Shown here in pieces: positions 780 through 54,850 of a stretch of 64,000 nt of DNA. Each line of letters starts with the position of its first letter. Within the stretch, counting starts at the first letter, position 1. Both the position numbers and the translations under genes were made by a program. Source of the DNA: an uncultured Scytonema sp. (GTDB lineage: Bacteria > Cyanobacteriota > Cyanobacteriia > Cyanobacteriales > Nostocaceae); assembly GCA_937873135.1 (NCBI GenBank), contig CALMVQ010000037.1:2487-66486 (forward strand). The letters are read 5' to 3'. The notes below the pieces were generated by a model, which did not search any database, was not told where the DNA came from, and saw only the letters and a list, made by a program, of their open reading frames with translations.

Positions 780-1598
780 ATGACGAATCCTACTGAGTTG
801 CTAAACAGTCGTTACGGTGCTAGTGCCGTTCATGTAGATGGTTTATGGAATGACAGCTTAACAAATCTGTTATCTCACCGCTCAATTCGTGCTTATAAAT
901 CTGATCCTTTGCCGTCAGGAACTTTAGAAATTTTGGTTGCGGCGGCTCAATCTGCGTCTACTTCATCGAATCTCCAAACATGGAGTGTCGTAGCTGTGGA
1001 AGATGCAAACCGCAAAGAAAAGTTATCACAACTGGCAGGAAATCAAGCACATATTCGGCAATGTCCACTATTCCTTGTTTGGTTGGCAGATTTAGCTCGC
1101 CTGACTCAGATTGCTGAAAGTCTCGGACTAGCACATGAAGGTTTAGATTACTTGGAAATGTTCCTGATGGCAACAGTAGATGCCACTTTGGCAGCTCAAA
1201 ATGCGAGCGTAGCTGCTGAATCTCTCGGCTTGGGAACAGTGTATATCGGTGCTATGCGTAACCAACCGGAAGAAGTGGCGAAGGTACTGAATTTGCCTTC
1301 GCAAGTTTTTGCTGTCTTTGGATTGTGTGTTGGTTATCCAGATCCGGCTCATGCTGCTGCGATCAAGCCGCGTTTACCACAATCGGCTGTGTTACACCGA
1401 GAAACTTATCAGTTAGAACAATCTGAAGCGATCACTCAGTACAACGAGGTCATGAAAGCATTCTACACTGCTCAACAGATGAATATTCCTGGCGATTGGT
1501 CGGAACACTCAGTCAAACGAGTTGGTTTTGCTCAGTCTTTATCGGGACGCGATCGCCTGCGTGAAGCCTTAAATAATCTTGGCTTCCAACTGCGGTGA
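780..1598 (+). CDS. NfsA/Frp-like NADPH-dependent flavin oxidoreductase (nitroreductase family)
   Basis: 272 aa. The N-terminal HRSIRAYK motif and overall nitroreductase-fold pattern are present, and the gene sits next to sulfonate uptake genes. Confidence 0.8.
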   Translation: MTNPTELLNSRYGASAVHVDGLWNDSLTNLLSHRSIRAYKSDPLPSGTLEILVAAAQSASTSSNLQTWSVVAVEDANRKEKLSQLAGNQAHIRQCPLFLVWLADLARLTQIAESLGLAHEGLDYLEMFLMATVDATLAAQNASVAAESLGLGTVYIGAMRNQPEEVAKVLNLPSQVFAVFGLCVGYPDPAHAAAIKPRLPQSAVLHRETYQLEQSEAITQYNEVMKAFYTAQQMNIPGDWSEHSVKRVGFAQSLSGRDRLREALNNLGFQLR

Positions 1599-1911
1599 CT
1601 TTTTTAAATACATTTTGATTCTTTTGGTGGCTTTAAACACGTGAAGCTCTCTTGACGGAAGCTTCCGCCCCCAAGACTTCACTTGAATGTATGATCAGCG
1701 CAAAAATTGGCGTTGCATAATTAAAGTATGAATTTTAGCCTCACGCATAGACGCGCGACTCGGCTTCCCGTAGGGTAGGCACAAAGACGCAAAGAATCGT
1801 TGTTTAGTCATCAGGGAAAATGTAAATTCATACCTCCATTAAGCAACGCCCGAAAATTTACCTTCAGCCGGATGCCCGTAACTCATAGCTGCCTTACTTT
1901 GTAAATTGATT

Positions 1912-1927
1912 TGGCATGGTTTTTGCA
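1912..1927 (+). promoter_or_regulatory. Candidate sigma-54 (-24/-12) promoter TGGCATGGTTTTTGCA upstream of the MFS gene
   Basis: GG-N10-GC spacing is exact and the -12 element is TTGCA. It is intergenic, on the same strand as the ATG at 1965 and about 38 bp upstream of it. It matches the 8768 promoter at 15 of its first 17 positions. Confidence 0.6.
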
Positions 1928-1964
1928 CAGAGGATAAGCAAACTATCATCATCACCAAGAACCT

Positions 1965-3206
1965 ATGCCAGAAAAGCGAAACCCAAGTGAAAAGAGTTTG
2001 CACGCACTAGATTACTTGAACCTGTTTTTAGCAGACGTGCGGGATGGTGTAGGACCATATCTGAATATCTACCTCAAAGGCTCGCAACATTGGAATCCTC
2101 AGCAAATCGGGATAGCCACAGCCGCCTCCTCAATTGCTACAGTGATTGCCCAAACACCTGCTGGTGCTTTGATTGACAGATTGAGCCAGAAACGGTTGTT
2201 GATTGTACTGGCTGCTGCTATAGTCACCTGTGGTTGCTTTTTTATAGCATTGTTTCCAAATTTGCAAGTGGTCATCGGCGCTCAGGTTTTGATTGGCATT
2301 GGTGCAGCGGTTTTTCCTCCTGCCATTGCGGCGATTACCTTGGGGTTGGTGGGGAATGACAAATTAGATCGGCGAGTCGGTCGCAATGAGACTTTCAATC
2401 ATTCAGGCAATTTACTAGCTGCTACTTTGGCGGGTCTTGCTGGTCAATTTATTGCGCCCAAATCCATCTTTTTTCTGGTTGGGTTAATGGCTGTCGCCAG
2501 TGCTTTTGCAGTTGCCAGAATTCGTGAGAAGGAGATTGACCACGATTTAGCGCGTGGTGATGCAGAAGAAAGCTCTTTGGAGGAAACAGAACCTCAAGAT
2601 AAGCAAGGAGGTATATTAAAGCTATTGAGTGACCGCCGTATACTCTTCTTCGCTACAGCAGTGGTTCTATTTCACTTTGCTAATGCGGCAATGTTACCTT
2701 TGGTTGGTCAAAGACTGGCTATAGATGGTAAAGGAACAGGATTAGATGGCACTGTTTATCTGTCTGCTTGCATTATTGTCGCTCAGTTAGTTATGATACC
2801 CACGGCAAACTTTGCTGGTCGCTTAGCAGAAGGTGGGCGAAAAGGCATCTTTTTAGTGGGCTTTGGTGTGTTGCCCATTCGGGGTGTACTTTACACACTT
2901 TCGCACAATCCCTTTTTTCTGGTTTCCGTACAAATCCTAGATGGAATTGCCGGCGGTATCTTCGGTGTACTTTCGATACTGATGGTTGCTGATTTAACTA
3001 AGGGAAGTGGTCGCTTTAATCTCACCCAAGGTATGCTTGCCACCTCGATTGGTATTGGTGCAGGTTTAAGTAATTTACTGGCTGGATTTGTGGTACAAAA
3101 AGCCGGATACAATGTTGGTTTTCTGATGCTGGCGGCGATCGCTGCTGTAGCTTTAGCCGTTTTCTGGTTTCTCGTACCCGAAACTAAACAACGGATAAAA
3201 AGCTGA
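1965..3206 (+). CDS. MFS transporter
   Basis: 413 aa with about 12 predicted hydrophobic helices, a central charged loop, and an MFS-like GALIDRLSQKR motif after TM2. Confidence 0.85.
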   Translation: MPEKRNPSEKSLHALDYLNLFLADVRDGVGPYLNIYLKGSQHWNPQQIGIATAASSIATVIAQTPAGALIDRLSQKRLLIVLAAAIVTCGCFFIALFPNLQVVIGAQVLIGIGAAVFPPAIAAITLGLVGNDKLDRRVGRNETFNHSGNLLAATLAGLAGQFIAPKSIFFLVGLMAVASAFAVARIREKEIDHDLARGDAEESSLEETEPQDKQGGILKLLSDRRILFFATAVVLFHFANAAMLPLVGQRLAIDGKGTGLDGTVYLSACIIVAQLVMIPTANFAGRLAEGGRKGIFLVGFGVLPIRGVLYTLSHNPFFLVSVQILDGIAGGIFGVLSILMVADLTKGSGRFNLTQGMLATSIGIGAGLSNLLAGFVVQKAGYNVGFLMLAAIAAVALAVFWFLVPETKQRIKS

Positions 3207-3508
3207 CAAGAAAAGCTTTTGCGCCTTCTGCCCTCTGCCTCCGTACTTCTGCCTTCATGTACTAGTTTCTTTTAGTCCGGAACAAATTAAACAGGGAATA
3301 AAATATGACCAAAAAGGTAAACATTTAAAAGCTATTGAGAAAGAGCAAGTTCCTCCACGCGGTAGTATTGGTCTTGTTCCTTCTCATGAAGTTAGTTACG
3401 ATTTAAAATCTAAAGTATTGGGAAAAGGTAAAGATGCACATTTTTCTTCACTTTCTAAAAGCCCTGCTGCATAAGGGTTACAAAATGTGCATCTTAGAAG
3501 TAACATTT

Positions 3509-3550
3509 TTAAGGTAATAATACTTTTGACTTTTGACTTTTGACGAACGC
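3509..3550. repeat. Partial copy of the ACTAGT/AAAAGTC-heptamer MITE family (GACTTTT x3)
   Basis: AATAATACTTTTGACTTTTGACTTTTGACGAACGCC is the reverse complement of the left part of the elements at 14217..14330 and 60875..60973. Confidence 0.6.
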
Positions 3551-3613
3551 CTCGGCTTCTTGAAGAAACCGGGGTTCTGAGATTTCATTCCTGCTGTATC
3601 ATCCATTTGTGCC

Positions 3614-4192
3614 TCAAAAAATAGGCAAATCTAAAACAAATTCTGGTAATACATTTTCTCCCGATAAATTTGCGGGTAATTGAACAATTTCAAAGGTTTG
3701 ATTGGGACGATAGATTTCTACTTGTTGTGCTTGGGGATTAATTAACCAACCTAACCGCAAACCACTGTTGAGGTATTCCTGCATTTTTTCTTGAAGTTGG
3801 GTCAGAGAGTCGGTGCGAGAACGCAATTCTATGACAAAATCAGGACATAATGGGGGAAACTTTTCTTGTTCTTCTGGTGTTAATGATTGCCAGCGTTCAT
3901 TAGTAACCCAAGCAACATCGGGAGAACGGTTTCCCCCATTCGGTAAACGAAATATGGTAGAAGAACTAAAGACTCTTCCCAGTTGAGTTTGACGGTTCCA
4001 CAACCAAAGTGAGCCGTTTAAATCAGCTTCTCGATTTCCACTGACTCCACCGACAGGAGGCATAATTATTAATTCTCCTTTAGTCGTTCGTTCCAATTGC
4101 CAATTTTGATTGTCTTGGCAGAGTTGGTAAAACTGCTCGTCGCTTAAGTCTACATTTTTTAAATTTAAAATTACCGTAGCTGAAGTAATCAT
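3614..4192 (-). CDS. Uma2 (DUF820) family endonuclease
   Basis: 192 aa with the GELIIMPP, SPDVAWV and PDFVIELRS motifs typical of the cyanobacterial Uma2 family. Confidence 0.85.
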   Translation of the reverse strand: MITSATVILNLKNVDLSDEQFYQLCQDNQNWQLERTTKGELIIMPPVGGVSGNREADLNGSLWLWNRQTQLGRVFSSSTIFRLPNGGNRSPDVAWVTNERWQSLTPEEQEKFPPLCPDFVIELRSRTDSLTQLQEKMQEYLNSGLRLGWLINPQAQQVEIYRPNQTFEIVQLPANLSGENVLPEFVLDLPIF

Positions 4193-4207
4193 TGCTGAAA
4201 AATTCCC

Positions 4208-4339
4208 ATGCCAAGGAAACGCCGTAATTTAAAAACTGGATACTCTTACCATATTACTACTCGTTGCAATAATCGCGAGTTTAAGTTAGCTAGGCGCGAG
4301 TGCCGGGGCGATCATCCATACTTATTTTGGAACCTCTAA
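4208..4339 (+). pseudogene. N-terminal remnant of an IS200-like / REP-associated tyrosine transposase
   Basis: Translates to MPRKRRNLKTGYSYHITTRCNNREFKLARRECR and then loses similarity and stops after 43 codons. Confidence 0.5.
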
Positions 4340-4542
4340 GAGCAAGGGAAGAGACAAAACATCGGCTGAGTTTGCCCGTGTAGCACAACAGACGGGTGGA
4401 CAGGCTTTTACTGACATAAGATTTTGGCAACAATTTTTAACTTACAACTATTTGAGTTTTAACTGAACCGTATTGGACCATAATCACAATGCTATTAATA
4501 ATATATTCTCCGGATTTAATATTACTAAATTGAAATAAGGAT

Positions 4543-5928
4543 TTATTGCCCATAAGTTTTTGAATCATCCAAACGCCTTCGTTTATGGGATGATTCAATC
4601 GCTGCAATTTTACGATATTTTGTCACTGTTCTGCGAGTTATTGGCAAATCAAACCTTACTCTTAAAAGTTGGGCTAGCTGTTCATCACTATAGGGATTGG
4701 TAAGTGATTCTTCTTCAATTAACTGTACGAGCATTTGTTGGATTTGTGGAGGAGTACGTCCGCCTACTAATGCTGGAACACATAGCAAATGCAACGGAAA
4801 AATTTGACTGTACGGGTTACTAATTAATATATACCGTCCCCGGACAATTCGGCTGATTGTGGAGTTACTGAGTCCTACCGATTGAGCGACTAATTGTTGT
4901 GGTGTAGGTACTAAATCTAAGCGATCGCGACTCTGCAAGAAAGCTTGCTGGCGTTCTACTAAAAATTGACCGACTTTGAGGAGATTTTCCTGCCATAGAT
5001 GTAATGCTGTAAGTAAGCTTTTTGCTTTTTTGTACAACACTTCTAGCTGTTGGGCTTCTCGCGTTCGCAGTTGAGATTTCTGCAAAAGCTCAACTGCTTC
5101 GGAATTTAGACAAAAGCGTTGCTCGACTTCAGAAGTTAAAGAAATTTGCCAACCACAAGCTGTTAATTTTGCTTTTAAATCGGGAGTTACAATAGGTGCA
5201 TTGTCATGACCAAAGTTTCTGGCAGGCCGAGGTTCTAATTCCTGAATTTCACGAATGGCGTCGTTTATTTTTTTGATATCTATATTCTGATAAGCTTGAT
5301 TTTGGAGCAACTTTTGTAGTAATATCTCACGATTAGAGCTTGCTTCTATAGAAGCACCAGTACAATTTGCTAATTCTTCTAAATACCCGTGAACTAATAG
5401 AAAAGCTAGACTTTGAGGCTTTTCTTTAAGTTGTAGTAACAGACACTCTTGTCCTGAACGAGCAGCAATTCCTGGGGGATCTAAACTTTGAAGAACAGGG
5501 ACAACTGCCTCTAATTCCCTTGCACTCCAGATACTACTACCATTTGCCCAAACGGTCGGAGTTTCTTCCAAGTATCCAGAGCTTGAGATCCATTGAGTTA
5601 AATAGATTAAAGCTTCACGTTGTCTTGATGGAATTGATAAGGCAGAGATTTGTCCAAATAGATGTTCGCTGAGACTTACGTACTGCGCGGGTAGAGTATA
5701 CCAATCTGGTAGAACATCCTCTAACAATGTTTCGCTTTTTTTCGCTAAAGTCGCATCCTCTATTAAAAATGGATTGTGTTTAGCCTCTTCCCGGACATAA
5801 TCTACTACTCGCTTCTGATCACATGGCAACAAGCGAACCAATTGCTGTAGCGTTGGATAAAGAACTGTTTGCGTTTCTAATTGTGTTTCTGTTGCAGGTG
5901 CGGCATTTAAAAAATTCATAAATTCCAT
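4543..5928 (-). CDS. rpoN: RNA polymerase sigma-54 factor (RpoN)
   Basis: 461 aa. Region I-like LQQLVRLL...EAKHNPFLIED is present. The C-terminal HTH is GLSNSTISRIVRGRY, and the RpoN box is ITRRTVTKYRKIA. An internal ATG at 5919 overlaps the upstream gene's stop as ATGA and may be the true start. Confidence 0.85.
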   Translation of the reverse strand: MEFMNFLNAAPATETQLETQTVLYPTLQQLVRLLPCDQKRVVDYVREEAKHNPFLIEDATLAKKSETLLEDVLPDWYTLPAQYVSLSEHLFGQISALSIPSRQREALIYLTQWISSSGYLEETPTVWANGSSIWSARELEAVVPVLQSLDPPGIAARSGQECLLLQLKEKPQSLAFLLVHGYLEELANCTGASIEASSNREILLQKLLQNQAYQNIDIKKINDAIREIQELEPRPARNFGHDNAPIVTPDLKAKLTACGWQISLTSEVEQRFCLNSEAVELLQKSQLRTREAQQLEVLYKKAKSLLTALHLWQENLLKVGQFLVERQQAFLQSRDRLDLVPTPQQLVAQSVGLSNSTISRIVRGRYILISNPYSQIFPLHLLCVPALVGGRTPPQIQQMLVQLIEEESLTNPYSDEQLAQLLRVRFDLPITRRTVTKYRKIAAIESSHKRRRLDDSKTYGQ

Positions 5929-7235
5929 TGCTGCTTTTTTTGCTCAAAGCTTTTGGCACAAAGTCCTAAAGCTTTGTGAGGTTCTTGGGGATAAAGAGCT
6001 AAAGCTCGGCGGATTAAGTTAAGCTCTAATTGAGCAACAGCTTGTTCCAAGTTTAAATCTATGTGGTTTTCTTGACTAAATATCAGATGCTCTGGTAATA
6101 TTGTACGCCCACCGGAAAGAATAGCTGCTCGCTCTAAAGTATTTTGCAACTCTCGTACATTTCCTGGCCAAGTATGACCTGTAAGTTTTTCCAAAGCCGC
6201 TCTTGTCATTGCGATTTTCACGCCATTACGCAAAGCAATGTAGCTTAAAAAATGTTGAGTCAGTTGCTCTAAATCTTCTAGGCGATCGCGTAAAGGCGGC
6301 AGTTCCATTCGTACCACATTCAAGCGATAATAAAGGTCTTCCCGAAATTGATTTAGGTTGACAAGCTGCTCTAAATTCCGATTGGTCGCTGCTATGATGC
6401 GGATATCTACGGTTTTGGTTTGGTTACTACCCAACCGCTCAAATGATTTATCCTGTAACACCCGCAATAGTTTCCCCTGAATCACTAAGCTCAACTCTCC
6501 AACTTCATCAAGAAATATCGTTCCACCATTCGCCTGCTCAAATCGACCGATTCGTAAATGATTGGCTCCGGTGAAGGCACCTTTTTCGTGCCCAAATAAC
6601 TCTGCCTCTAACAGATGTTCTGGAAGTGCCGCACAGTTGACTTTTACCAAAGGTCCACGACTACGAGGACTGGTAGTATGGAGAGTGGAAGCGACTAACT
6701 CTTTGCCAGTGCCTGATTCTCCGGTAATTAAGACTGTGGTATTGACTTGAGCAACTCTACCAATGAGTTTAAAGACGGATGCCATCGCAGGCGATCGCCC
6801 CAATAGTTCTTCTGGGTGTCCTAAAGCTTCGGGATTTGCTTCACCAAACTGATAGGCTAAAGCATGGGAGTGAGCTAAAGCCTTTTGAGTTAGATTGACC
6901 AAATCATCCAGAGAGAAAGGTTTAGTTAAGTAATCATAGGCTCCCAACTGTATCGCTTCAATCGCTGTACGACTTGTCCCATATGCCGTCATCACAATCA
7001 CAGGCAGTTCAAACAGTGTTTTTCCCAAAGCTTTAAGAACCTCACTCCCCTGAGTTTTGGGCATTTTCAGATCCAGAAACACTAAGTCAGGAGGAGATGC
7101 CGCATCTTGTTGAATGATCTTCAGTCCCTGCTGTCCATCTCCTGCTTCTACGACTGTGTGCCCAACATCATTAAGAATCTGCGCCATTGCCTGACGCAAA
7201 GCTTTTTCATCATCAATAATGAGAATTTTAGACAC
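5916..7235 (-). CDS. Sigma-54-dependent response regulator (NtrC/ZraR-type bacterial enhancer-binding protein)
   Basis: Receiver domain has IIDDE, FLDLKMP and TKPF. The AAA+ domain has Walker A GESGTGKE, the GAFTGA loop and IFLDEVGEL. A Fis-like C-terminal HTH is present. The GTG start overlaps the kinase stop by 8 nt. Confidence 0.9.
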   Translation of the reverse strand: MSKILIIDDEKALRQAMAQILNDVGHTVVEAGDGQQGLKIIQQDAASPPDLVFLDLKMPKTQGSEVLKALGKTLFELPVIVMTAYGTSRTAIEAIQLGAYDYLTKPFSLDDLVNLTQKALAHSHALAYQFGEANPEALGHPEELLGRSPAMASVFKLIGRVAQVNTTVLITGESGTGKELVASTLHTTSPRSRGPLVKVNCAALPEHLLEAELFGHEKGAFTGANHLRIGRFEQANGGTIFLDEVGELSLVIQGKLLRVLQDKSFERLGSNQTKTVDIRIIAATNRNLEQLVNLNQFREDLYYRLNVVRMELPPLRDRLEDLEQLTQHFLSYIALRNGVKIAMTRAALEKLTGHTWPGNVRELQNTLERAAILSGGRTILPEHLIFSQENHIDLNLEQAVAQLELNLIRRALALYPQEPHKALGLCAKSFEQKKQQWNL

Positions 7236-8706
7236 GAGTGTCTCCTGACTCCTGAGTCCTAGTTGGTAAATAAACGCTAAAAATAGTACAACCAGGCTCA
7301 GAGGTTAAACTAATATATCCTCCATGTCGCGTGACGATCTCGTGGCTAATTGCTAAACCCAACCCCGTTCCTTCCGGCTTTGTGGAATAGAAAGGCTCAA
7401 AAATTCGTTCGCGCTCTTCTGGTGACAAACCCGATCCTGAGTCTTTTACCCAAGTTACCAAATCGTCTTGCTGTTCTACACCCACCTCAACTCTCTCTCC
7501 TGCTGGACTAGCTTGGATAGCATTCAAAATTAAATTCACCATCACCTGTCCTAACTCCCGACGGCGCAGTAATATCTGGGGTAAAGCCTTAGCAGGCTCG
7601 TGATAGATGAGTGCAACTCCCTGTTCTTCTGCTGATAGACGCAGCAAGGAAACAGATTCCAAAGCGATCGCCTCTAGGGAAGTCCTCACCATTTCCTCCT
7701 CTGACTGATTTTGGTCAAAGTACATCAGTCGTTGCACCAAATGCTCTAAACGGTCTACTTGTTCTATTAAGCTAGCAGTCGGTAGAGTGGTTACCCCAAG
7801 ATTGTGGAGTTGTCGTTCTGTATACTGCAAATTCAGACGCATACTGGCTAGTGGATTGCGGACTTCATGGGCTACCCCCGCTACCAGATGTCCTAAAGAT
7901 GCCAAACGCTCGACTCGGTGTAGGCGCTGTTCTAACTCTTGGCGACGACATTGCATAGTATTAATCGCAGATCCCAACAATCCCATTTCTGCTGGTAGGG
8001 GTGGAATCAGCGAAGTTTTAGAATATTCCATCACCTTGATACTCTCATGGAGTCGCTGTACTCCCCGGTGAAGTTGTAAGGCAATATAAAAAGTCCAAGC
8101 TCCCACCACTAAATTTCCGAAAACTACCAGAAGACTCAGGACTTTTTGATCACCATCTTCGAGGCGAGGCATACGTTTCATTGTCCATACTGCTCCCCAT
8201 AAAGGTAGCGGATCTGCACGCAGTACCAAGATATCAAGACCTGATTTCCGGATTAATTCTTGGGGTAAGCCTTGGCTTGTCGCTCTCCGAGCTAATTGTA
8301 AAATTGTACTTCGCTCAACCGCAGGAATATCTTTTTTCGGGATAGGTCCTCCGTGGGTAGGAAACGCATAGCCTAATAGTCGATCTTGTTGCAGCAGGTA
8401 AAATCCCCCTTCTACTCTGGGAAAAACCGTGAGCGCTTCATTTGAGAGTTCCTCCAACTGCGTGTCTGGCTGCTTGCTTGACTTTGGTGTTTGCCCAAGC
8501 GGTAATTCCCAAAACAGCTTAATCAGTCTAGTATTGGCAAAAGTCAGTGTTCTTTGGTTTCTGGCTACCACTACACCCTCTAAACTTTGAAATAGCTGTA
8601 CTACCAGCAACAACGCAGCTCCACTTAAACCTAAAAACAGGACGCTCAGGATTGTGAGTTGCTGTCGGAGTGTCCAACTTTGGGGTAATACAAAGGGTTT
8701 CATCAC
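7228..8706 (-). CDS. Membrane sensor histidine kinase (two TM helices, periplasmic loop, HisKA plus HATPase)
   Basis: H-box GVAHEVRNPLAS, N-box LILNAIQA, G-boxes DSGSGL and GTGLGL. Hydrophobic helices lie near residues 17-40 and 190-212. Confidence 0.9.
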   Translation of the reverse strand: MMKPFVLPQSWTLRQQLTILSVLFLGLSGAALLLVVQLFQSLEGVVVARNQRTLTFANTRLIKLFWELPLGQTPKSSKQPDTQLEELSNEALTVFPRVEGGFYLLQQDRLLGYAFPTHGGPIPKKDIPAVERSTILQLARRATSQGLPQELIRKSGLDILVLRADPLPLWGAVWTMKRMPRLEDGDQKVLSLLVVFGNLVVGAWTFYIALQLHRGVQRLHESIKVMEYSKTSLIPPLPAEMGLLGSAINTMQCRRQELEQRLHRVERLASLGHLVAGVAHEVRNPLASMRLNLQYTERQLHNLGVTTLPTASLIEQVDRLEHLVQRLMYFDQNQSEEEMVRTSLEAIALESVSLLRLSAEEQGVALIYHEPAKALPQILLRRRELGQVMVNLILNAIQASPAGERVEVGVEQQDDLVTWVKDSGSGLSPEERERIFEPFYSTKPEGTGLGLAISHEIVTRHGGYISLTSEPGCTIFSVYLPTRTQESGDTRV

Positions 8707-8734
8707 ATATAGCTATCGAAGCAGATTCATAATG

Positions 8735-8750
8735 TGGCACTAACCTGCCA
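8735..8750. promoter_or_regulatory. Palindrome TGGCA-N6-TGCCA between the kinase start and the sigma-54 promoter
   Basis: A perfect 5+5 inverted repeat. GG-N9-GC spacing on both strands makes it a poor sigma-54 promoter, so it could instead be an operator. Confidence 0.3.
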
Positions 8751-8767
8751 AAGTCGTCTTGTATCTA

Positions 8768-8783
8768 TGGCACGATTTTTGCA
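8768..8783 (+). promoter_or_regulatory. Sigma-54 (-24/-12) promoter TGGCACGATTTTTGCA
   Basis: Exact match to the TGGCACG-N4-TTGCA consensus with GG-N10-GC spacing. It lies 62 bp from the divergent kinase start and 48-63 bp upstream of the in-frame GTG starts of the downstream gene. Confidence 0.7.
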
Positions 8784-8845
8784 CTATTACATTTCGGGAG
8801 CTGTATTCCATACAATTGCATTCAGGATTCGTGAGGTCGTCTTTT

Positions 8846-9820
8846 GTGAAAAATAACTCAGAAGTTCGGATTCCCAAAGAAATTGCTACAAATGTTTTTG
8901 CTCTGGCTGCTCACCTGTATGAGCAAGAAAAACAGGACTATTCCTTAGAGGAACTTATACAGGCAGGAGCCGAAGTACATATTCCAAGAGAGTTGATTCA
9001 AAAAGCTATACAGCAAATCCAAGCACAGCAAAGCTCAGTTCGCTCGCGACAGCAAAAGTTAAAATTAATCTTGATCAGTGGGAGTACAGGAGCCGCGATC
9101 GCGCTTATGAGTGTATTTGCTTACAATAGTGTTGCTAGTAACTTCATCGGAACTCAGCGATCGCCAGTAAACAATCTCCTGGCTACTGATTTGCGGAATA
9201 CTAACACTCAAGATATTCCTAACCCACTCCAACCGCCACCCCCAGTCTTCCCCAAAGCAGATGAAACGACTATGACAGGAGAGGTGCAACAATATATTCT
9301 TAACCCTGAAGGAAAGGTGGATGGACTCTTACTCAAAAATGGGTTACAAGTAAAATTTCCGCCTCATATGGGGGACAGCTTAGTAGCTTTGGTGACTCAG
9401 GGAACTAAAATCACTATTTCGGGAAAACCAGGCTTGTCTACCCGCTTTGGTGAAGAGGTAAAAGCTAGAAGCATTACTAATTCTCAAACTGGACAGACTT
9501 TAGTCGCTCAACCTCCCACCATACCGCCCCAACCGCCCGGCTTGAGCAACTACAGTACTTTATCTGTAGAGGGAACCGCCCAGCATTGGTTAGTGGGACA
9601 TAGAGGTGAGATAAATGGCGTCATTGTCTCCAATGGTGCAATTGTGAAGTTCCCACCACATGTAGGCAATCAGCTAGTCAATACGGCGAATGTAGGAGAC
9701 AAAATCCAAGCTCAAGGTTTTGGAACTCGCAACCCGGAAGGTCAGATTATACAAGCTACAGCGCTTTCTATCAATGGGCAAATCGTGTCTCTAGAACCAA
9801 AAGGCGTTGTCGATCCCTAG
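8846..9820 (+). CDS. Membrane-anchored protein of unknown function with two tandem ~80-aa periplasmic repeats
   Basis: The ORF 8759..9820 overlaps the promoter, so the start is more likely the GTG at 8846 (GAGG 9 nt upstream) or at 8831. One TM helix (LILISGSTGAAIALMSVF), Pro-rich linkers, and an internal duplication sharing a NG..VKFPPH.G..LV motif. Confidence 0.7.
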   Translation: MKNNSEVRIPKEIATNVFALAAHLYEQEKQDYSLEELIQAGAEVHIPRELIQKAIQQIQAQQSSVRSRQQKLKLILISGSTGAAIALMSVFAYNSVASNFIGTQRSPVNNLLATDLRNTNTQDIPNPLQPPPPVFPKADETTMTGEVQQYILNPEGKVDGLLLKNGLQVKFPPHMGDSLVALVTQGTKITISGKPGLSTRFGEEVKARSITNSQTGQTLVAQPPTIPPQPPGLSNYSTLSVEGTAQHWLVGHRGEINGVIVSNGAIVKFPPHVGNQLVNTANVGDKIQAQGFGTRNPEGQIIQATALSINGQIVSLEPKGVVDP

Positions 9821-9833
9821 CAGGCACTCTTAT

Positions 9834-9849
9834 TGGCATGAAAATTGCG
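9834..9849 (+). promoter_or_regulatory. Candidate sigma-54 (-24/-12) promoter TGGCATGAAAATTGCG
   Basis: GG-N10-GC spacing is exact and the -12 element is TTGC. It is intergenic and 213 bp upstream of the permease start. The -12 element is contributed by a HIP1-containing repeat arm. Confidence 0.45.
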
Positions 9850-9924
9850 ATCGCGTCTCTACGTTAAAATCCCTTCGGTAGTTTTCTTTCCTTGCGATGC
9901 CCGAAATCAAAGAGACGCGATCGC
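9847..9924. repeat. Inverted repeat GCGATCGCGTCTCT ... AGAGACGCGATCGC (14-bp arms, 50-nt spacer)
   Basis: Perfect 14-bp arms, each containing HIP1. The left arm overlaps the -12 element of the candidate promoter at 9834. Confidence 0.7.
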
Positions 9925-10061
9925 CCTTGTCTCTACACTATGCCCGAACCAGCAAAATACGGATTTAAACCGCCAAGACGCCAAGGACGCAGAGAAAGAA
10001 GGTAATAAAGATAGGTAATTTTACACTCCTGATGGGAGTCATCTAAAATCTGGGCATCCAA

Positions 10062-11246
10062 ATGATTGTTTTTAGATACATCGTCATTGTAGTGACTTAT
10101 GTCGGTTTGGGTTTAGGGTATATACCTGGTTTACGGATGAATCGAGCCAGTATTGCTCTAGTTGGTTCATCTTTGCTGATGGCATTGGGCGTTTTAGATC
10201 TTAAAGAAGCATGGGGAGCGATTGATTATAAAACGCTGATTTTCTTATTTAGCATGATGGCAATCAGCGCTAACCTGGCTTACTCTGGTTTTTTTCAACT
10301 AGTGCTGGATATGATCATGCGCTATTTCCGCAGTCCCCTTGGTTTGCTGATTGTTTTAACTTGCGGTAGTGCGATTCTCTCAGCTTTTTTTCTGAATGAT
10401 ACCATTGCCCTAATTCTTACTCCCTTGACTTTAGGCTTAGCTCAAACTTTAAACCTTAATCCTATTCCTTACTTACTTGCATTGGCGGGAGCAACTAATC
10501 TTGGTTCAGTCGCGACATTGAGTGGTAATCCTCAAAATATCTTAATTGGTTCTTTTTCTGGGATCAGCTATCTTGACTTTGCTAAAGCTTTAACTCCTAT
10601 TGCATTAATAAGTTTGTTGATTCAGATAGGTTTACTGTGGTTACTCTACCCTGATATCCGCTCTACTAAATCTTGCTTGAGTGGAGAACCTTTGCGATAT
10701 CGTGTATTCAAACCCCTACTGATTAAGAGTCTACTGATCACCGGCGGATTGTTGGTTGCATTCTTAATTGGGATACCCCCAGCCCAAGCAACACTAGTCG
10801 CAGCGGGTTTAATGTTTATCACCAGGCGAATCAAACCACAGCGAATTTTAAATAAGGTGGACTGGGATTTACTAGTGATGTTTTCTGGACTGTTTATTGT
10901 GACTGCTGGAGTGGAAAAATTAGGAGTATTGGATTTATTTGGCGGTTTTGTGCATACTCCCTTGAGCATATTAGGAGTTACTGCTCTTATGTCCAATTTA
11001 GTTTCTAATGTCCCGGCTGTATTGCTACTGAAACATTTAATTCCTCATCCAGATACAAAAACTTGGTTACTCTTAGCGGCTGGCTCTACCTTGGCTGGTA
11101 ATCTAACTTTGTTAGGTTCAGTTGCTAATTTAATTGTTGCGGAAGCTGTCGCCAAACAGGGACATCATTTGTCATTTTGGGAACATTTGCGTTTTGGCCT
11201 ACCGCTGACTGTCCTGACTCTCATTATCGCCTATTGGTGGATTTAA
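10062..11246 (+). CDS. ArsB/NhaD-superfamily (citrate-transporter-like) anion permease
   Basis: 394 aa and highly hydrophobic (about 10-11 helices). The SGNPQNILIG motif is typical of this permease superfamily. Confidence 0.8.
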   Translation: MIVFRYIVIVVTYVGLGLGYIPGLRMNRASIALVGSSLLMALGVLDLKEAWGAIDYKTLIFLFSMMAISANLAYSGFFQLVLDMIMRYFRSPLGLLIVLTCGSAILSAFFLNDTIALILTPLTLGLAQTLNLNPIPYLLALAGATNLGSVATLSGNPQNILIGSFSGISYLDFAKALTPIALISLLIQIGLLWLLYPDIRSTKSCLSGEPLRYRVFKPLLIKSLLITGGLLVAFLIGIPPAQATLVAAGLMFITRRIKPQRILNKVDWDLLVMFSGLFIVTAGVEKLGVLDLFGGFVHTPLSILGVTALMSNLVSNVPAVLLLKHLIPHPDTKTWLLLAAGSTLAGNLTLLGSVANLIVAEAVAKQGHHLSFWEHLRFGLPLTVLTLIIAYWWI

Positions 11247-11304
11247 CACCAGTAAGAGTAACATTATACACAAATTTTCCCATCAGTACAATTAGGTCAT
11301 GATG

Positions 11305-11416
11305 ACTAGTACAGATCGGCGGAAATAACCCACCCATCTGAAATAGTTAAAACCCTTACAAAATAAGGTTCTTTCTTTTTACTTTTTACTTTTTACTTTT
11401 GCCTTGTTGTACTAGT
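11305..11416 (-). mobile_element. MITE, family A (ACTAGT-terminated TIRs, AAAAAGT heptamer tract), 112 bp
   Basis: ACTAGT at both ends. About 85 nt are identical to the reverse complement of 14325..14436. Confidence 0.8.
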
Positions 11417-11437
11417 GACCTATGATTTTCGGTCAAC

Positions 11438-26737: not shown

Positions 26738-27443
26738 AACCAGGATTTTCTATACTGCTTTAATGCAGAAATCTCCATTTATTTTTCATCTGTGGAATAA
26801 ATTTAAAATCTAAAATCCTTAAGCCTAAGAGTACAGAGCGTGGAGTCAATCCGTACATTCGGTTAGAGGTTGACTTTCTTTGCACAGCTGGGAGTTCCAG
26901 AGGAAATATTTGCCTTGCATCCTGATTTTGTAAAGACTAAAAATAATTTGTATTGCTCACCTTGACTTTTATTAGCAAAACATTACAAAATCTTGTTTTT
27001 TGATACTATTGCTATGGTAGTATGTTAACTAATTACGGTTGGTCACTCAAATAAACGTATTTTCCTGGTATAATCAACGGATAGGAGATATCTATAGTAA
27101 AGACCTTAGAGGCACTGAGATGAAGGAGTAAATTTTTGCTAGTTTTTAGGCAACCAATGGTTGGACGACTTAATGCTGGCACTAGAAATGCACTTATCCA
27201 ACCCATGAGTGTGCTGCTGGCGTAGCTGTTCAATGGTAGAAAAAGTTGCTTTCATAGATATAAAGCAAGTTTTTGTTTTTCTTGTTTCAGTCTCTAATTT
27301 TTATAGAGAGTGAGATAAGTCATGATTAATAAAATTGTACACTCATTTCAACCAACTTGTCTAGTCTAAGCAGGTCTGGTTTAAAATCGTCTTCTTTAAA
27401 TCTTAATTCTTGGAGCTTAGTCTTAGTAGAGTCGTCAAAATTA

Positions 27444-28451
27444 ATGAAACCACTATTTTTTAGTCGAGCGAACAGTCATTTTTTACAAACATTACTAATG
27501 TTTGTGGCTTTGGGTATGACTTCTTGTAGCGGTGCCGAGGAACAGAAGCGGCAGATAAGTATTGATGGTGGAACCGTTGGTTATCCACTTCATCAAGCAG
27601 TTGCTGAAGAATATAAAAAGGTGAAACAAGATGCCCAAATTAGCGTTGCTTTTAGTGGTACTGGCGGTGGCATGAGTAAGTTCTGTTCCGGGCAAATTGA
27701 TATTGCTGGTGCTTCACGCGCTATAAAAAAAGAGGAAATTGCTAAATGTAAAAAGCAGGGAATTAATTTTGTAGAGTTACCTGTCGCTCTCGATGGAATT
27801 GCTGTCATTACTAATAAGAAAAATGATTTTGTGAAATGCTTATCGATTCCAGAACTTAATAAAATGTGGAGTCCCAAATCAACTAATAAAATAAAAAACT
27901 GGAATCAAATTAATGCGAAGTTCCCCAACCAAAAGTTGACGCTTTATGCGCCTTCTTCAGATACTGGAACATTTGACTACTTCACACAAGCTATTAATAA
28001 AAAATCCAAAGCTGGTCGGACAGATTACACTTCAACTCAAAATCAAAACGTTCTTGTTCAAGGAATTGCTGGTGATGAGAACGCAATAGGTTACGTGGGT
28101 ATTTCTTACTACTTAGCAAAGAAAAATCAGCTACAGCTCGTTGCGGTGCAAACTCCGAAAGGAAATTGTGAAACACCAGAGCCGTCATCCAAAGTTGCTA
28201 CCAACACCTACACACCTTTGTCTCGTCCTCTATTCATATATGTTAGCCAAAAGTCCCTGGACAGTAAGCCAGTAGTCAAGGATTTTGTTAATTTCTATTT
28301 AGACAATTCTAAGAAGTGGGTTCAACAGTCTGGCTACGTTGAACTTACTGATGAGACTTATGGCAAGGTAAAACAAAGGTTTACTTCTGATACAACAGGT
28401 TCCAAATTCCTAAAAGCAAAACCTGGAGATCCGATTGCGAAGTATCTTTAA
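27444..28451 (+). CDS. pstS: Phosphate ABC transporter substrate-binding protein
   Basis: SGTGGGMSKF and IAGASR motifs. The likely start is the ATG at 27444, giving a lipoprotein-like signal peptide (LGMTSC). The longest ORF starts with TTG at 27357. Confidence 0.85.
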   Translation: MKPLFFSRANSHFLQTLLMFVALGMTSCSGAEEQKRQISIDGGTVGYPLHQAVAEEYKKVKQDAQISVAFSGTGGGMSKFCSGQIDIAGASRAIKKEEIAKCKKQGINFVELPVALDGIAVITNKKNDFVKCLSIPELNKMWSPKSTNKIKNWNQINAKFPNQKLTLYAPSSDTGTFDYFTQAINKKSKAGRTDYTSTQNQNVLVQGIAGDENAIGYVGISYYLAKKNQLQLVAVQTPKGNCETPEPSSKVATNTYTPLSRPLFIYVSQKSLDSKPVVKDFVNFYLDNSKKWVQQSGYVELTDETYGKVKQRFTSDTTGSKFLKAKPGDPIAKYL

Positions 28452-31566: not shown

Positions 31567-32007
31567 TCAAAGCTCATCACTTGACCAGCCCTCCCTTGCA
31601 AGGCAGAAGGCAGAGGCTTGATTGCCGAAGGAATAAGTAATCTTTTGGGAAGGAAGCAAAATTTCAAACCAATCTTCTGCCAAATCAAAGGGGTCAAGTA
31701 CTTGGTCATCAAGAGTGCCTTTGGTACTATTAATCCAAGCAGAAGCAAAACGTAAATTGCTCCATTCGTAAGCCAAATTGCGATAATTTTCGCGGCTAAG
31801 AAAATGGTCTACCGTACCAACTGGTTCGTACATCACTGAATAAGCACAAAGATTATTGAAGCCATCAGCTAAAATACTTTTAAACGGCGACCAATAATCC
31901 CTAGTTCCTTTTTTTTGTTCTGGATTTTTCAATAACCAAGCATTCCCCGGTACTCTCACTTTGTCATCAAAATCTGAAGGTTCTGGTAGAGGTTTAAAGG
32001 GTATCAT
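31567..32007 (-). CDS. TIGR02646-like HNH-superfamily protein (PtuB-like; Cys-poor variant)
   Basis: 146 aa. The pattern CAYS...VDHFLSR...YEWSNLRFAS..IN.TKG matches the CaYCE...EHf.Pks...W.NL..aC..CN..Kg family signature with the Zn-ligand Cys positions substituted. Confidence 0.6.
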   Translation of the reverse strand: MIPFKPLPEPSDFDDKVRVPGNAWLLKNPEQKKGTRDYWSPFKSILADGFNNLCAYSVMYEPVGTVDHFLSRENYRNLAYEWSNLRFASAWINSTKGTLDDQVLDPFDLAEDWFEILLPSQKITYSFGNQASAFCLAREGWSSDEL

Positions 32008-32095
32008 TATAATATTATGCTCCCGATCAACCAGAAGTTCTTTTTTCTGATGTGACTATCCAACGGGGCCAAAATGGGTCATGTCCAGGTAAAAC

Positions 32096-35552: not shown

Positions 35553-35799
35553 CCGAATATTCCTGTAGTAGTATTAACCGATTATTTCACCGGATGGTAT
35601 TTCCCATCTTTACTGTACAGCTTTAGCAGTAGTTTTCTTTTTTCAAGTAATTGGATGATATAAATTTGTTGTAAGAATTGATGAGCCAGAATCCAGGGGT
35701 CAGAATAGTTAGTGATACTGTTGGTGAAGTCGAAAAAGGGCAGACGTGGGACAATATTTACGTACCTAGCAATCGACCATAGCATCGCTAAAGCAGAGA

Positions 35800-39650: not shown

Positions 39651-40322
39651 TTAGGTAAACTGCCGACTTAAAGTCACAGGCTTATGAACAGTAATTTTTT
39701 TCTTGTGAATTGAAATCATCTTTTTTTCGCGTAAATCGCCCAGTAACCTGGTTACAGTAACGCGAGTAGAGCCAATTGCCTCTGCGATCGCTTGATGAGA
39801 CAGCTTCAGGTCAATTGTGATTCCATCTGCACAAGGTAAGCCAAAATCACGACAAAGAATTAATAAAAAACTTACTAACCTCGAACCCATGTCTCGGTGG
39901 GCAAGCGTTTCAATCATCATCTCTGTCTGTAAAATCCGCGAAGATAAACCCCGCAGCATTAACATCGACAACTCTGGATTTTCCTTGAGTGCTTGTTCTA
40001 CCTGTTCAATCGGTGCTGATAGCAGTTCCGCAGGCGTAAAAGCAACCGCATGGTAAAACCGATCTGATTTGTTTCCTGTAAGGAGGGACAAAACGCCAAA
40101 AACACTGTTTTCCCGCAATAGCGCTACTGTTATTTCTTCTCCTGCTTCGTACACCCTGGAGAGTTTTACAGCACCTTTCAAAAGAAAATAAACTCGTTCA
40201 GCTGGATCGCCAGGAAAAAAGATCGTTTTGTTACGCTCAAACGTTTCCACAACTGGCGGAAACGCTCCGGTCGCCATCTGACGAAAAACATTTGCGAGGG
40301 CTTTATCTTGTGTCACGATCAT
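39651..40322 (-). CDS. ntcA: Global nitrogen regulator NtcA (CRP/FNR family)
   Basis: [58 protein letters not shown]... and the [22 protein letters not shown] are essentially the Anabaena/Nostoc NtcA sequence. Confidence 0.97.
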
Positions 40323-40409
40323 CTCCCTTCCCCTACCCAATGCCGGAAAACTAAAATAGATTACCTAAGAATACACCACTAAAATCAATAAGACATGGTC
40401 AACCTTTCG

Positions 40410-53185: not shown

Positions 53186-54850
53186 TTAGTTTCTACTCTT
53201 AAAAGAGTTTAACCAATGTCTGACCTGCTCGGCAGCAATATCGCGAGAGCCCAGACCAAAAGATAGAGCAACAGCGATCGCCACGGCTCCTAGTAAAAGT
53301 CCAAAGGCTAAATTCACAATATCCGTGGCAACACCGATCTGTTGCAATGCCATTGCTGATACTAGACAAATAATCGCAATCCGCGCTACTTGACCCAAGA
53401 TCCTTGCTTGGCGATCGCCAGAACTGGTAATGATATTAAAAGCTAGATTTGCTAAAAACAACCCAACAGCAAACACCACCAAACCTGCCAAAATTCGCCC
53501 CAAGATAACGACTATACCCGTGACGAGGATTGTTAGTGCCTGAATATTCAAGATATTGACTGCGGCGACAGTTGCAAACAGCATAATGCCGACTAAGACA
53601 ATAATGCCGACCACTTCCGATGGGGTACGGGTTGAGATTCGACTTTGTGGTGTTGTTGGTTCTGGAATCACAACTCTTCTCGTCGGTGATGGCAGACCTA
53701 AGATCGAGAAAATGTTGTCAAAACCTATACTTGTGAGGATATTGGTAACGAGTTCTGCAACGAATCGTCCAAAGAAATAGGCAATAATCAAAATAGCTGC
53801 TGCCGTAAAGATTGCAGGCAGTGTATTGAGAATCTGTTGCAGCATGGAAATTGCTGGCACAGAAATTGCCTGAATTTGGAGAGTGTTCAACGCGGCGATC
53901 GCAACAGGGATCAAAATCAAGACATAGACAAGTGTGCCGATAATCGCTGATAGAGATTGCATCCCTGTTGAACTACTGCGGGTGAACCCAAACCGACTCC
54001 CCAAATTGTCAATGCCAGTTGTCATTAACAAGTTCGTGACAATCCGCCGCACGATATTCGCCACAAACCAGCCAATTGCCGCAATGAGTATTGCACCGAG
54101 AATATTTGGCAGAATTGACAGAATCTGTGTAATCAGAGTTTGTACTGGTTGTAGTGCCTGCCTGAGCCCTAGTGCATCTAGTATCGGGGCAAGAAACAGT
54201 AAAAAGATAAACCAATATAGGGCATTGCCAATTGTCTCACTTAGTGAGACACGACTACTGCTTAGGGAGGTTGTGTCTTCTGGTGGATTTACGCGCTCGT
54301 CTATTCGTAATGCGTTCAATCCACGTACAGTTATTAGTTTGACTACTGTGGCTACTAACCAAGCTGCCGCAAAAAGGATTGCCGCACCCACAAGCTTGGG
54401 TAAGAAATCACCAACTTGATTGAGAAAACTATTGAGTGGCTGAGAAGCAACTCTGAGATTTAGAGTGTCTAAAACGGCAACTATCGTGATCAGCAATATA
54501 GCCCAGAAGACTAAGCTGGAGATAATTTTCTCCACCTGGGGAAGTTCTCTACCCGTGATTCCAGTAGCAATCCGGTTATCGATATTTGTACGATTGAGCA
54601 GGGAACGAGTCAGTGCAGCTGCGATCGCCGCAATTACCCAACCAACTAACAAAATCAGTACGGCTCCCAACAATGTGGGCAGAAAATTAATCACCTGCTG
54701 CAAGCTTCCTTGCGCGTAATCGACGATACCACCAGGTTGAGTTGTTGGTAACGTTGGCGATTGTGCTAATAATCGCTGTCCTCCGGTTGACCTACCAACT
54801 TCCATCACCTGGATTATTCCTTGCCAAGTTGTGTTCATGGTTTTCTGCAA
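53186..54850 (-). CDS. Multi-pass membrane protein built from repeated conserved-TM-helix units (mechanosensitive-channel-associated type)
   Basis: 554 aa with a repeated (L/I)P.(L/I)(L/V)GA..I....W..A pattern about five times. Confidence 0.6.
   Translation of the reverse strand: MQKTMNTTWQGIIQVMEVGRSTGGQRLLAQSPTLPTTQPGGIVDYAQGSLQQVINFLPTLLGAVLILLVGWVIAAIAAALTRSLLNRTNIDNRIATGITGRELPQVEKIISSLVFWAILLITIVAVLDTLNLRVASQPLNSFLNQVGDFLPKLVGAAILFAAAWLVATVVKLITVRGLNALRIDERVNPPEDTTSLSSSRVSLSETIGNALYWFIFLLFLAPILDALGLRQALQPVQTLITQILSILPNILGAILIAAIGWFVANIVRRIVTNLLMTTGIDNLGSRFGFTRSSSTGMQSLSAIIGTLVYVLILIPVAIAALNTLQIQAISVPAISMLQQILNTLPAIFTAAAILIIAYFFGRFVAELVTNILTSIGFDNIFSILGLPSPTRRVVIPEPTTPQSRISTRTPSEVVGIIVLVGIMLFATVAAVNILNIQALTILVTGIVVILGRILAGLVVFAVGLFLANLAFNIITSSGDRQARILGQVARIAIICLVSAMALQQIGVATDIVNLAFGLLLGAVAIAVALSFGLGSRDIAAEQVRHWLNSFKSRN

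Follow-up and report, generated by a model that had tools for sequence, protein, structure and literature searches.

A putative self-contained sigma-54 signaling module in a subset of cyanobacteria

The stretch of 64,000 nucleotides (nt) analyzed here (the window), which is part of contig CALMVQ010000037.1 of an uncultured Scytonema sp. (assembly GCA_937873135.1), carries on its minus strand three overlapping genes for a membrane-bound sensor histidine kinase (HK), an AAA+ activator of the bacterial enhancer-binding protein (bEBP) type and a sigma factor of the sigma-54 family (RpoN). Intact motifs, overlapping genes, conserved gene order and linkage, conserved promoters and low ratios of nonsynonymous to synonymous substitution rates (dN/dS) make it probable, at a good level of confidence, that this cassette is a functional, self-contained sigma-54 signaling module native to a subset of cyanobacteria. 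It belongs to a family that is found in dozens of cyanobacterial species and is real, functional-looking and essentially undescribed.

Sigma-54 and its activators were absent from all 29 cyanobacterial genomes available to Francke et al. in 2011 (PMC3162934). The description of cyanobacteria as users of sigma-70-type factors only, from which an earlier note on this DNA started, is still found in a 2023 PNAS paper, according to which cyanobacteria do not possess sigma-54 (PMC10120043), and in a 2024 study of cyanobacterial sigma factors, which reports the presence of sigma-70 genes only (PMC11119718); a 2025 survey lists, in one sentence, Gloeocapsa PCC 7428 and Leptolyngbya O-77 as exceptions (PMC12316311). 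NCBI annotation already labels the cassette genes as sigma-54, and no description of the operon, the promoters, the truncated activator or the linked targets was found in open-access papers and bioRxiv. The earlier note had allowed for the case that such rpoN-activator pairs are common and already characterized. Common they are, with an RpoN locus in at least 46 cyanobacterial species (scan with one genome per species), but no cassette has been characterized, so that the two do not apply together.

Organization and domain composition of the cassette

The regulatory genes are arranged as follows.

7228..8706 (-): HK, open reading frame (ORF) of 492 amino acids (aa), first gene of the operon
5916..7235 (-): bEBP, ORF of 439 aa
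4543..5928 (-): RpoN, ORF of 461 aa

The ORF listing places the three genes where the earlier note had located them, and both described junctions are present in the sequence: the kinase stop and the activator start share GTGTCTAA, corresponding to an overlap of 8 nt, and the activator stop (TGA) overlaps an rpoN start codon as ATGA. The ATG of this second junction is the second one of the rpoN ORF (M4, position 5919), and since homologs start there, the RpoN product is likely 458 aa long. The gene lies, as previously noticed, outside the usual lptB/hpf/ptsN setting of rpoN; its neighbors in the window are the bEBP gene and a gene of the Uma2 family.

Hidden Markov model searches, which had been proposed as a check, matched the three proteins to the sigma-54, activator and kinase models of Pfam. 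The RpoN matches to Sigma54_AID (PF00309; 29.7 bits, cutoff 23.8), Sigma54_CBD (PF04963; 114.7 bits) and Sigma54_DBD (PF04552; 98.7 bits) all exceed the gathering thresholds, and the first of them supports the claim of a full-length protein that includes region I. The protein is composed of region I, a short region II, the core-binding domain, a helix-turn-helix (HTH; LSNSTISR, residues 353-360) and the RpoN box (RRTVTKYR, residues 432-439), the latter two as predicted. From the core-binding domain to the RpoN box, residues 82-450 align to the sigma-54 of Escherichia coli and Klebsiella in solved holoenzyme structures, and the motif LYPTLxQLVxLLP...NPF, which is invariant in the cyanobacterial RpoN clade, aligns with region I of E. 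coli. By its sequence, RpoN represents a diverged sigma-54 lineage.

The kinase matches HisKA (PF00512; 37.8 bits) and HATPase_c (PF02518; 86.3 bits). Its proposed H-box HEVRNPL is located at residues 280-286, and N, G1 and G2 boxes were recognized in a motif check, which places the protein in the HisKA class with its H-box-bearing phosphotransfer domain and catalytic ATP-binding domain. Hydropathy indicates a first transmembrane (TM) helix at about residues 18-48, an extracytoplasmic domain of ~145 aa, a second TM helix at about 192-210 and then the HisKA/HATPase_c core. Scores against the NCBIfam models AtoS (233.5 versus a cutoff of 646) and ZraS (170 versus 479) stay below the cutoffs. Orthologs of the kinase, which are 56-97% identical, adjoin the bEBP gene in ~40 loci.

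The activator matches Response_reg (PF00072; 101.8 bits), Sigma54_activat (PF00158; 241.3 bits) and AAA_lid_14. The receiver residues said to be intact (D8, D9, D55, T83 and K105) are all present, as are the Walker A motif GESGTGKE (residues 172-179), the sigma-54-contacting GAFTGA loop (219-224) and a Walker B motif (IFLDE). The designation as an NtrC-type bEBP thus holds for the receiver and the AAA+ domain; without a detectable HTH_8 domain, however, the protein falls short of a full NtrC-type bEBP. NCBIfam scores are again lower than the cutoffs (AtoC, 431.8 versus 714; NtrC, 444.5 versus 558.6; ZraR, 358 versus 760). Four activator homologs (P0264, P0267, P0268 and P0271, including those of Leptolyngbya sp. 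7M and Scytonema sp. UIC 10036) lack the receiver or have another N terminus and are 75-81% identical to the window activator in the aligned AAA+ part. They may represent alternative input modules or gene fragments.

Linked target genes and sigma-54 promoters

Three plus-strand genes flanking the operon had been nominated as targets by the earlier note.

1965..3206 (+): MFS_1 transporter gene, candidate target (Pfam MFS_1, 153.5 bits; synteny)
8846..9820 (+): Unk353 gene, candidate target, GTG start at 8846 (alignment, AlphaFold2 and Foldseek)
10062..11246 (+): gene of a CitMHS / ArsB-NhaD-superfamily permease, candidate target (Pfam CitMHS, 227.6 bits)

The following candidate promoter elements were assigned to these genes and to the kinase operon.

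8768..8782 (+): putative sigma-54 promoter P(Unk353), TGGCACGATTTTTGC, perfect -24/-12 element whose end lies 64 nt upstream of the Unk353 start codon (GTG, 8846), pointing away from the kinase operon
1912..1926 (+): putative sigma-54 promoter P(MFS), TGGCATGGTTTTTGC, 53 nt upstream of the MFS start codon (ATG, 1965), with one mismatch
9834..9848 (+): possible internal sigma-54 promoter, TGGCATGAAAATTGC, between Unk353 and CitMHS, 228 nt upstream of the CitMHS start codon, with one mismatch
8734..8751 (-): degenerate remnant of a putative autoregulatory sigma-54 promoter of the kinase operon, TTGGCAGGTTAGTGCCAC, GG-to-GC spacing one base short

Sigma-54 sites were sought in the window and within 10 kb on either side of each cassette, i.e., in ~850 kb in all. 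Strict TGGCA[CT]-N5-TTGC sites occur 89 times in 792 kb compared with 2.4 expected, and almost all of them precede cassette genes and are correctly oriented. The positions left free in the search fit the canonical extended consensus, with G after TGGCAC in 64 and A after TTGC in 82 of the 89 sites. The elements at 8768 and 1912 have the sequence properties of sigma-54 promoters, namely GG/GC spacing, intergenic location, orientation toward a gene and conservation in orthologs. Unk353 orthologs are preceded by a site with at most one mismatch in all 30 cases (29 perfect), at a distance of 46-98 nt from the start in 29 of them and of 312 nt in the remaining locus (L039), and a site is present 53-90 nt before the MFS gene in 27 of 31 orthologs. 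Each of the three nominated targets has a -24/-12 element, two of which are conserved across ~30 species. Of 37 loci, 20 have an intact TTGGCATAGTTTTTGCAC at the place equivalent to the 8734..8751 remnant, ~39 nt upstream of the kinase start.

The three target genes stay linked to the cassette even though gene order varies among lineages. CitMHS is linked in ~30 loci; in Nostoc it forms one unit with the MFS gene, which comes first behind the MFS promoter, and in other lineages it follows MFS or Unk353 without a sigma-54 site of its own. In Unk353, a conserved cytoplasmic helical N-terminal domain of ~60 aa is followed by a single TM helix, a linker that is rich in proline and variable, and a pair of extracytoplasmic domains, for which AlphaFold2 gave predicted local distance difference test (pLDDT) values of >90 and Foldseek returned tandem-OB proteins. 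According to these models, Unk353 is a membrane-anchored tandem-OB-fold protein. Full-length homologs form ~55 clusters, and every one with an organism name is cyanobacterial. A longer Unk353 ORF with a TTG start at 8759 was rejected: homologs begin at the position of 8846, and the upstream start is excluded because the conserved promoter falls within the extension.

The tandem-OB module recurs in a larger family of secreted proline-rich proteins (~1,500 representative clusters at 50% identity; matches to the Unk353 profile are P0296-P0442) with the motif G-V-x-x-Y-L-L-N-P-E-G-x-V-D-G-L-L-L-x-N-G-x-Q-V-K-F-P-P-H. No Pfam model covers this family, for which just weak matches to DUF5666 or tRNA_anti-codon were obtained.

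Some further sites were recorded. An element similar to that at 9834, GAAAATTGC, is present in Aetokthonos (L038). An inverted repeat at 9840-9931 (21-nt arms, HIP1 containing, 86% complementary, 50-nt loop), which overlaps the -12 region of the 9834 site, may represent a terminator, attenuator or 5' stem-loop. A sigma-54-like site at 27177-27191 (+), TGGCACTAGAAATGC, has a defective -12 element (ATGC) and is located 180 nt upstream of a gene for a PstS-family phosphate-binding protein (27357..28451). A perfect TGGCAC-N5-TTGC at 53855-53869 (+) was set aside as probably a chance match because it lies antisense within a mechanosensitive-channel gene (53186..54850 [-]); alternatively, it may be an antisense promoter. 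A metagenome scan with the promoter string TTGGCACGATTTTTGCA, which resembles the universal sigma-54 consensus too closely to be informative about distant regulon members, yielded no cyanobacterial locus among the 80 loci listed (no HIP1, no cassette homologs).

Host, distribution and evolution

The cyanobacterial origin assumed in the earlier note was confirmed by an NtcA_cyano equivalog at 39651..40340 (-) (380 bits versus a cutoff of 245) and by 39 HIP1 octamers in the window compared with 0.5 expected, a roughly 80-fold enrichment; four of them are located inside the three cassette genes, whose GC content is uniform and the same as that of the surrounding DNA. The closest relatives are Rhizonema metagenome-assembled genomes from lichens with 91-97% protein identity and the same gene order, including the Uma2 insertion. 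The cassette is native cyanobacterial DNA, and by sequence similarity the host is a Rhizonema-like cyanobacterium; contamination of the contig, which had been considered beforehand, is excluded by HIP1, NtcA and the Rhizonema relatives.

A search of 5.8 billion proteins with RpoN returned ~93 clusters of 45-94% identity, and all named ones are cyanobacterial. The hosts comprise Rhizonema, Stigonema, many Nostoc, Scytonema hofmannii PCC 7110, Brasilonema and Chroogloeocystis as well as Chroococcidiopsidaceae, Calothrix, Thermoleptolyngbya and Leptolyngbya. Beyond the cyanobacteria, identity falls sharply to ~30% (Nitrospinota, Nitrospirota), and the cyanobacterial RpoNs group together in a neighbor-joining tree as a single, long-branched clade that comprises two sub-lineages. 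Kinase, activator and rpoN genes are adjacent and co-oriented in ~40 of the 46 cyanobacterial loci, and in the 34 non-cyanobacterial rpoN loci an adjacent bEBP gene was found only once (Filifactor, L079). The donor lineage was not found: the nearest non-cyanobacterial bEBPs, an orphan of Thermomicrobiales (L203) and that of L204, are ~49-54% identical, and the latter lies near an rpoN gene whose product is just 25% identical to that of the window.

The cassette genes are located on chromosome-sized contigs of cultured strains such as Scytonema hofmannii PCC 7110, Gloeocapsa PCC 7428 and Nostoc TCL240-02. Flanking genes are shared within Nostoc and within Microcoleus, so the locus appears chromosomally stable. 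Carriage by plasmids was rejected, as all 356 plasmid matches are non-cyanobacterial with <31% identity.

Relative to close and distant relatives, dN/dS amounts to 0.23-0.33 for rpoN, 0.07-0.18 for the activator, 0.15-0.18 for the kinase and 0.14-0.32 for Unk353. The cassette genes are under purifying selection, and RpoN evolves faster than the neighboring genes. Given the low overall ratios and some truncated Nostoc copies, the module is maintained in most lineages and lost in some. Decayed cassettes are present in lichen-associated Nostoc (L006, L043, L045 and L046), in which the kinase gene has been lost, rpoN contains a frameshift or the activator is shortened; the MFS and CitMHS genes often persist along with their sigma-54 promoters. 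One 57,146-bp contig of Chroococcidiopsidaceae harbors two complete paralogous cassettes ~10 kb apart (L081 and L035) with activators of 439 and 389 aa.

The activator tail and the question of an enhancer

By Pfam, no HTH_8 domain (PF02954) was detected in the whole bEBP, which ends in a diverged tail of 45 aa. The model is present in many outgroup proteins of ~50% identity (AtoC-like) and in no cyanobacterial homolog. Two length classes of the activator exist, a long form of ~440 aa with a conserved tail and a short form of ~390 aa that terminates directly behind the AAA lid and is the usual one in the second RpoN sub-lineage (clade B). Within the long-form lineage, the tail was independently lost in Iningainema and Stigonema.

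Activation without a classical enhancer is suggested by the missing PF02954 domain, the tail-less short forms, the lack of a shared k-mer upstream of the target promoters and the close spacing of divergent -24 elements. It is a firm conclusion for the short-form cassettes and slightly favored for the window, whose long-form bEBP leaves room for a classical mechanism, in which the tail would be a working HTH that binds upstream activating sequences near the target promoters. We regard this alternative as tenable but the less probable one. Long-form proteins share an almost unchanged tail (PHKALG, FEQKKxQWNL), which aligns to the HTH_8 region of the AtoC-like outgroups in the same register, apart from deletions of 3 and 11 aa, so that positional homology is plausible. 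For the tail, a helix, a short helix and another helix are predicted with pLDDT values of 65-87 (in the AlphaFold model of the bEBP, which is poor overall with a mean pLDDT of 51, only the tail and segments of the receiver were interpreted). Being conserved, aligned to HTH_8 and helical, it may therefore still bind DNA. Conversely, the isolated tail has no Pfam match at E<=10, its hhalign probability against the HTH_8 profile is just 29% and the 3-residue deletion falls in the turn region. Moreover, no k-mer was common to the upstream regions of the target promoters of one genome, neither for the three of the window nor in four other genomes, in a test that has low power; the only shared k-mers represented repeats of the short tandemly repeated repetitive (STRR) type or physically overlapping regions. 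Sister cassettes with the same promoters have bEBPs without any tail, and just 42-58 bp separate the -24 elements of back-to-back promoters in several loci. In some Nostoc loci (L008, L036), STRR-like repeats (AAAGGGGAAAGG...) fill the spacers of divergent sigma-54 promoters, which expand from ~58 to ~180 bp.

Is the sigma factor private?

The earlier note had called the cassette's RpoN a private sigma factor. This term gains strength from the -24/-12 elements at the three nominated targets; the exclusivity is something that we infer from ~850 kb of flanking sequence. Our tentative proposal is a diverged cyanobacterial sigma-54 lineage, adapted to the atypical cyanobacterial polymerase, that may serve as a single-input private sigma factor with one kinase, one activator lacking an enhancer-binding domain and a few adjacent promoters. 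If true, coexisting cassettes would imply either orthogonal activator/sigma-54 pairs in one cell or a deliberate convergence of signals.

A rather improbable alternative is a functional cassette that is not private, whose sigma-54 would drive a wider chromosomal regulon, possibly together with other activators, the neighboring genes being merely the most visible targets. The scan covered just ~850 kb around cassettes, and distant sigma-54 promoters and further activators may exist outside it; the window itself contains the two additional sites at 27177 and 53855, some cyanobacterial AAA+ homologs lack a receiver or have other N termini, and in Chlamydia one activator without a DNA-binding domain controls dozens of genes (PMC7482065). 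However, strict sites outside cassette genes number ~2 in ~850 kb, the same as the ~2.6 due to chance, and the 27177 and 53855 sites fit this expectation as well, the former with its defective -12 element and the latter antisense inside a channel gene. The 64-kb window encodes a single GAFTGA motif and a single RpoN box, and every cyanobacterial bEBP among the 120 matches listed falls in one clade. Doubts about the functionality of the cassette could arise from the truncated or frameshifted copies of lichen-associated Nostoc, the faster change of RpoN and the fact that model strains are not among the named matches. However, the reading as a dead remnant of an ancient horizontal transfer, or as a contaminant from outside the cyanobacteria, is effectively refuted by dN/dS values far below 1, complete catalytic motifs, promoters kept in 30 of 30 orthologs, HIP1 inside the genes, the NtcA gene in the same window, the matching GC content and the same cassette in >40 cyanobacterial genomes, including multi-megabase contigs.

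Several observations weigh against a functional and private module. RpoN carries all three domains of the sigma-54 family, but its score against TIGR02395 is 222.8 bits, under the equivalog cutoff of 277.35. For the kinase operon of the window, neither a good sigma-54 promoter nor one of the sigma-70 type was found. The 9834 site is conserved only in near-identical Rhizonema loci and overlaps the HIP1-containing inverted repeat, for which reasons it is rated as a possible and not as a probable promoter. The two cassettes of the Chroococcidiopsidaceae contig have near-identical -24/-12 promoters, at which activators without DNA-binding domains would have to avoid cross talk; if neither activator reads DNA, this arrangement would reflect either designed cross-activation or pairing specificity between activator and sigma-54. 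The possible DNA binding by the long-form tail, the low power of the k-mer test and the limits of the ~850-kb scan belong to the same side of the balance.

Proposed circuit

Gene content, motifs, synteny, promoter conservation, purifying selection and the absence of HTH_8 are results of the sequence analysis; the steps of phosphotransfer and activation, the independence from an enhancer, the restriction of the regulon to the locus and the kind of signal are inferred. The three regulatory genes would be translationally coupled and co-transcribed. The kinase would sense an extracytoplasmic signal via its ~145-aa sensor domain, autophosphorylate and pass the phosphate to D55 of the activator, whose phosphorylated receiver would release or assemble the AAA+ ring. 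The GAFTGA loops of this ring would then contact region I of the cassette-encoded sigma-54, which is expected to reside already with core RNA polymerase in closed complexes at the -24/-12 promoters, and ATP hydrolysis by the ring would open them. The outputs would be the membrane-anchored periplasmic OB-fold protein, the MFS transporter and possibly the CitMHS permease, whose gene may alternatively be transcribed by readthrough from the OB-fold gene. Since identifiable promoters precede the OB-fold protein and the transporters, the output is presumably a small envelope and transport response.

An activator without a recognizable DNA-binding domain probably acts without a classical enhancer, in which case specificity would result from the presence of a single sigma-54 and a single activator (at least one genome has two such pairs). 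The kinase operon of many relatives is preceded by a sigma-54 promoter of its own, which would provide positive feedback; in the window this promoter is degenerate, and basal expression would therefore come from another promoter. The most invariably controlled target would be Unk353, which is divergent from the kinase, and a feedback of its product on the kinase, similar to ZraP/ZraS and CpxP/CpxA, is a speculative analogy.

Comparison with known systems

In Chlamydia, rpoN is located outside the ctcBC operon and CtcB is not known to be a membrane sensor. The CtcB-CtcC system nevertheless resembles the cassette in that one sigma-54 is served by one two-component activator, and the targets are largely membrane proteins in both cases. 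CtcC consists of a receiver and an ATPase without a DNA-binding domain and is, like the window bEBP, most similar to AtoC, which provides a precedent for enhancer-independent activation (PMC7482065). In contrast to the dispersed and development-linked regulon of Chlamydia, the cyanobacterial sigma-54 is translationally coupled to its activator and the recognizable targets are adjacent. Non-cyanobacterial RpoNs are just ~25-30% identical to that of the window.

The ZraPSR system of E. coli consists of a kinase/activator operon and a divergent, strongly induced gene whose product is an extracytoplasmic accessory protein, with two sigma-54-dependent, autoregulated promoters. The cassette shares the divergent arrangement with a gene for an extracytoplasmic accessory protein, and in many cyanobacterial relatives both promoters are of the sigma-54 type. 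ZraS and ZraR are among the best NCBIfam matches of kinase and activator, yet far below the equivalog cutoffs, and the accessory protein is a predicted membrane-anchored tandem OB-fold and not of the ZraP/CpxP type. Furthermore, ZraR contains HTH_8 and binds to the DNA between the divergent genes, and rpoN of E. coli is located elsewhere and serves many activators. AtoS-AtoC and NtrB-NtrC represent the best sequence matches and have the receiver-AAA+ architecture and the GAFTGA mechanism in common with the cassette. They differ by the sub-cutoff scores, by the HTH_8 domain that is missing from the window bEBP and by targets that are unrelated to ato or gln. With such scores, and with an OB-fold protein and two permeases as targets, the cassette belongs to none of the ZraPSR, AtoSC and NtrBC systems.

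FlgR of Helicobacter and Campylobacter is another activator that works without an enhancer-binding domain. The FlgS-FlgR system differs from the cassette in its flagellar regulon, cytoplasmic kinase and unlinked rpoN. A pathway-dedicated sigma factor that is encoded beside its regulator and often autoregulated is also known from the rpoN paralogs of Rhodobacter sphaeroides, which has three to four rpoN variants (PMC3162934), and from cassettes of extracytoplasmic function (ECF) sigma and anti-sigma factors. The Chroococcidiopsidaceae contig with its two paralogous cassettes provides a parallel to these paralogs. The paralogs of R. sphaeroides coexist with a general sigma-54 and with DNA-binding activators, whereas the sigma-54 of the cassette is the only one of its genome region and is itself the dedicated one; ECF sigma factors are members of the sigma-70 family, and sequestration, not an ATPase, controls them.

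Implications

The cassette corrects the repeated statement that cyanobacteria have only sigma-70-type factors and represents a candidate for a minimal natural sigma-54 circuit with sigma factor, activator, sensor and targets in one ~10-kb locus. It makes three questions accessible to experiments: the docking of sigma-54 on the split-beta-prime, SI3-bearing cyanobacterial polymerase, the function of an AAA+ activator without enhancer DNA when there are no competing partners and the orthogonality of two sigma-54/activator pairs in one cell. For synthetic biology, the circuit is a candidate for a tightly-off, signal-inducible expression switch in cyanobacteria. Judging from the organism names, most named hosts seem to come from terrestrial, subaerial or symbiotic settings (lichen photobionts of Rhizonema and Nostoc, Scytonema, Stigonema, Brasilonema, Chroococcidiopsidaceae and Microcoleus), which hints at a role in envelope or solute homeostasis there.

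Neighboring features of the window

An Rfam search over 1500-11500 gave nothing credible, with one sub-threshold match (E = 0.16). The gene for the Uma2-family putative endonuclease, 3614-4192 (-), sits between rpoN and the MFS gene and is confined to the Rhizonema lineage among the loci compared. The CitMHS gene is directly followed at 11438-14245 (-) by a gene for a 935-aa Roc-COR-A-COR-B-CHAT protein (GTPase plus caspase-like domain). A stretch of low GC content (0.34-0.36) at 32000-35600 contains a DUF4277 ORF and a gene for an AAA_15/AAA_21 ATPase with weak similarity to PtuA (Septu/retron effector) and may be a small defense or mobile islet; a further low-GC stretch is located at 14-16 kb of the window.

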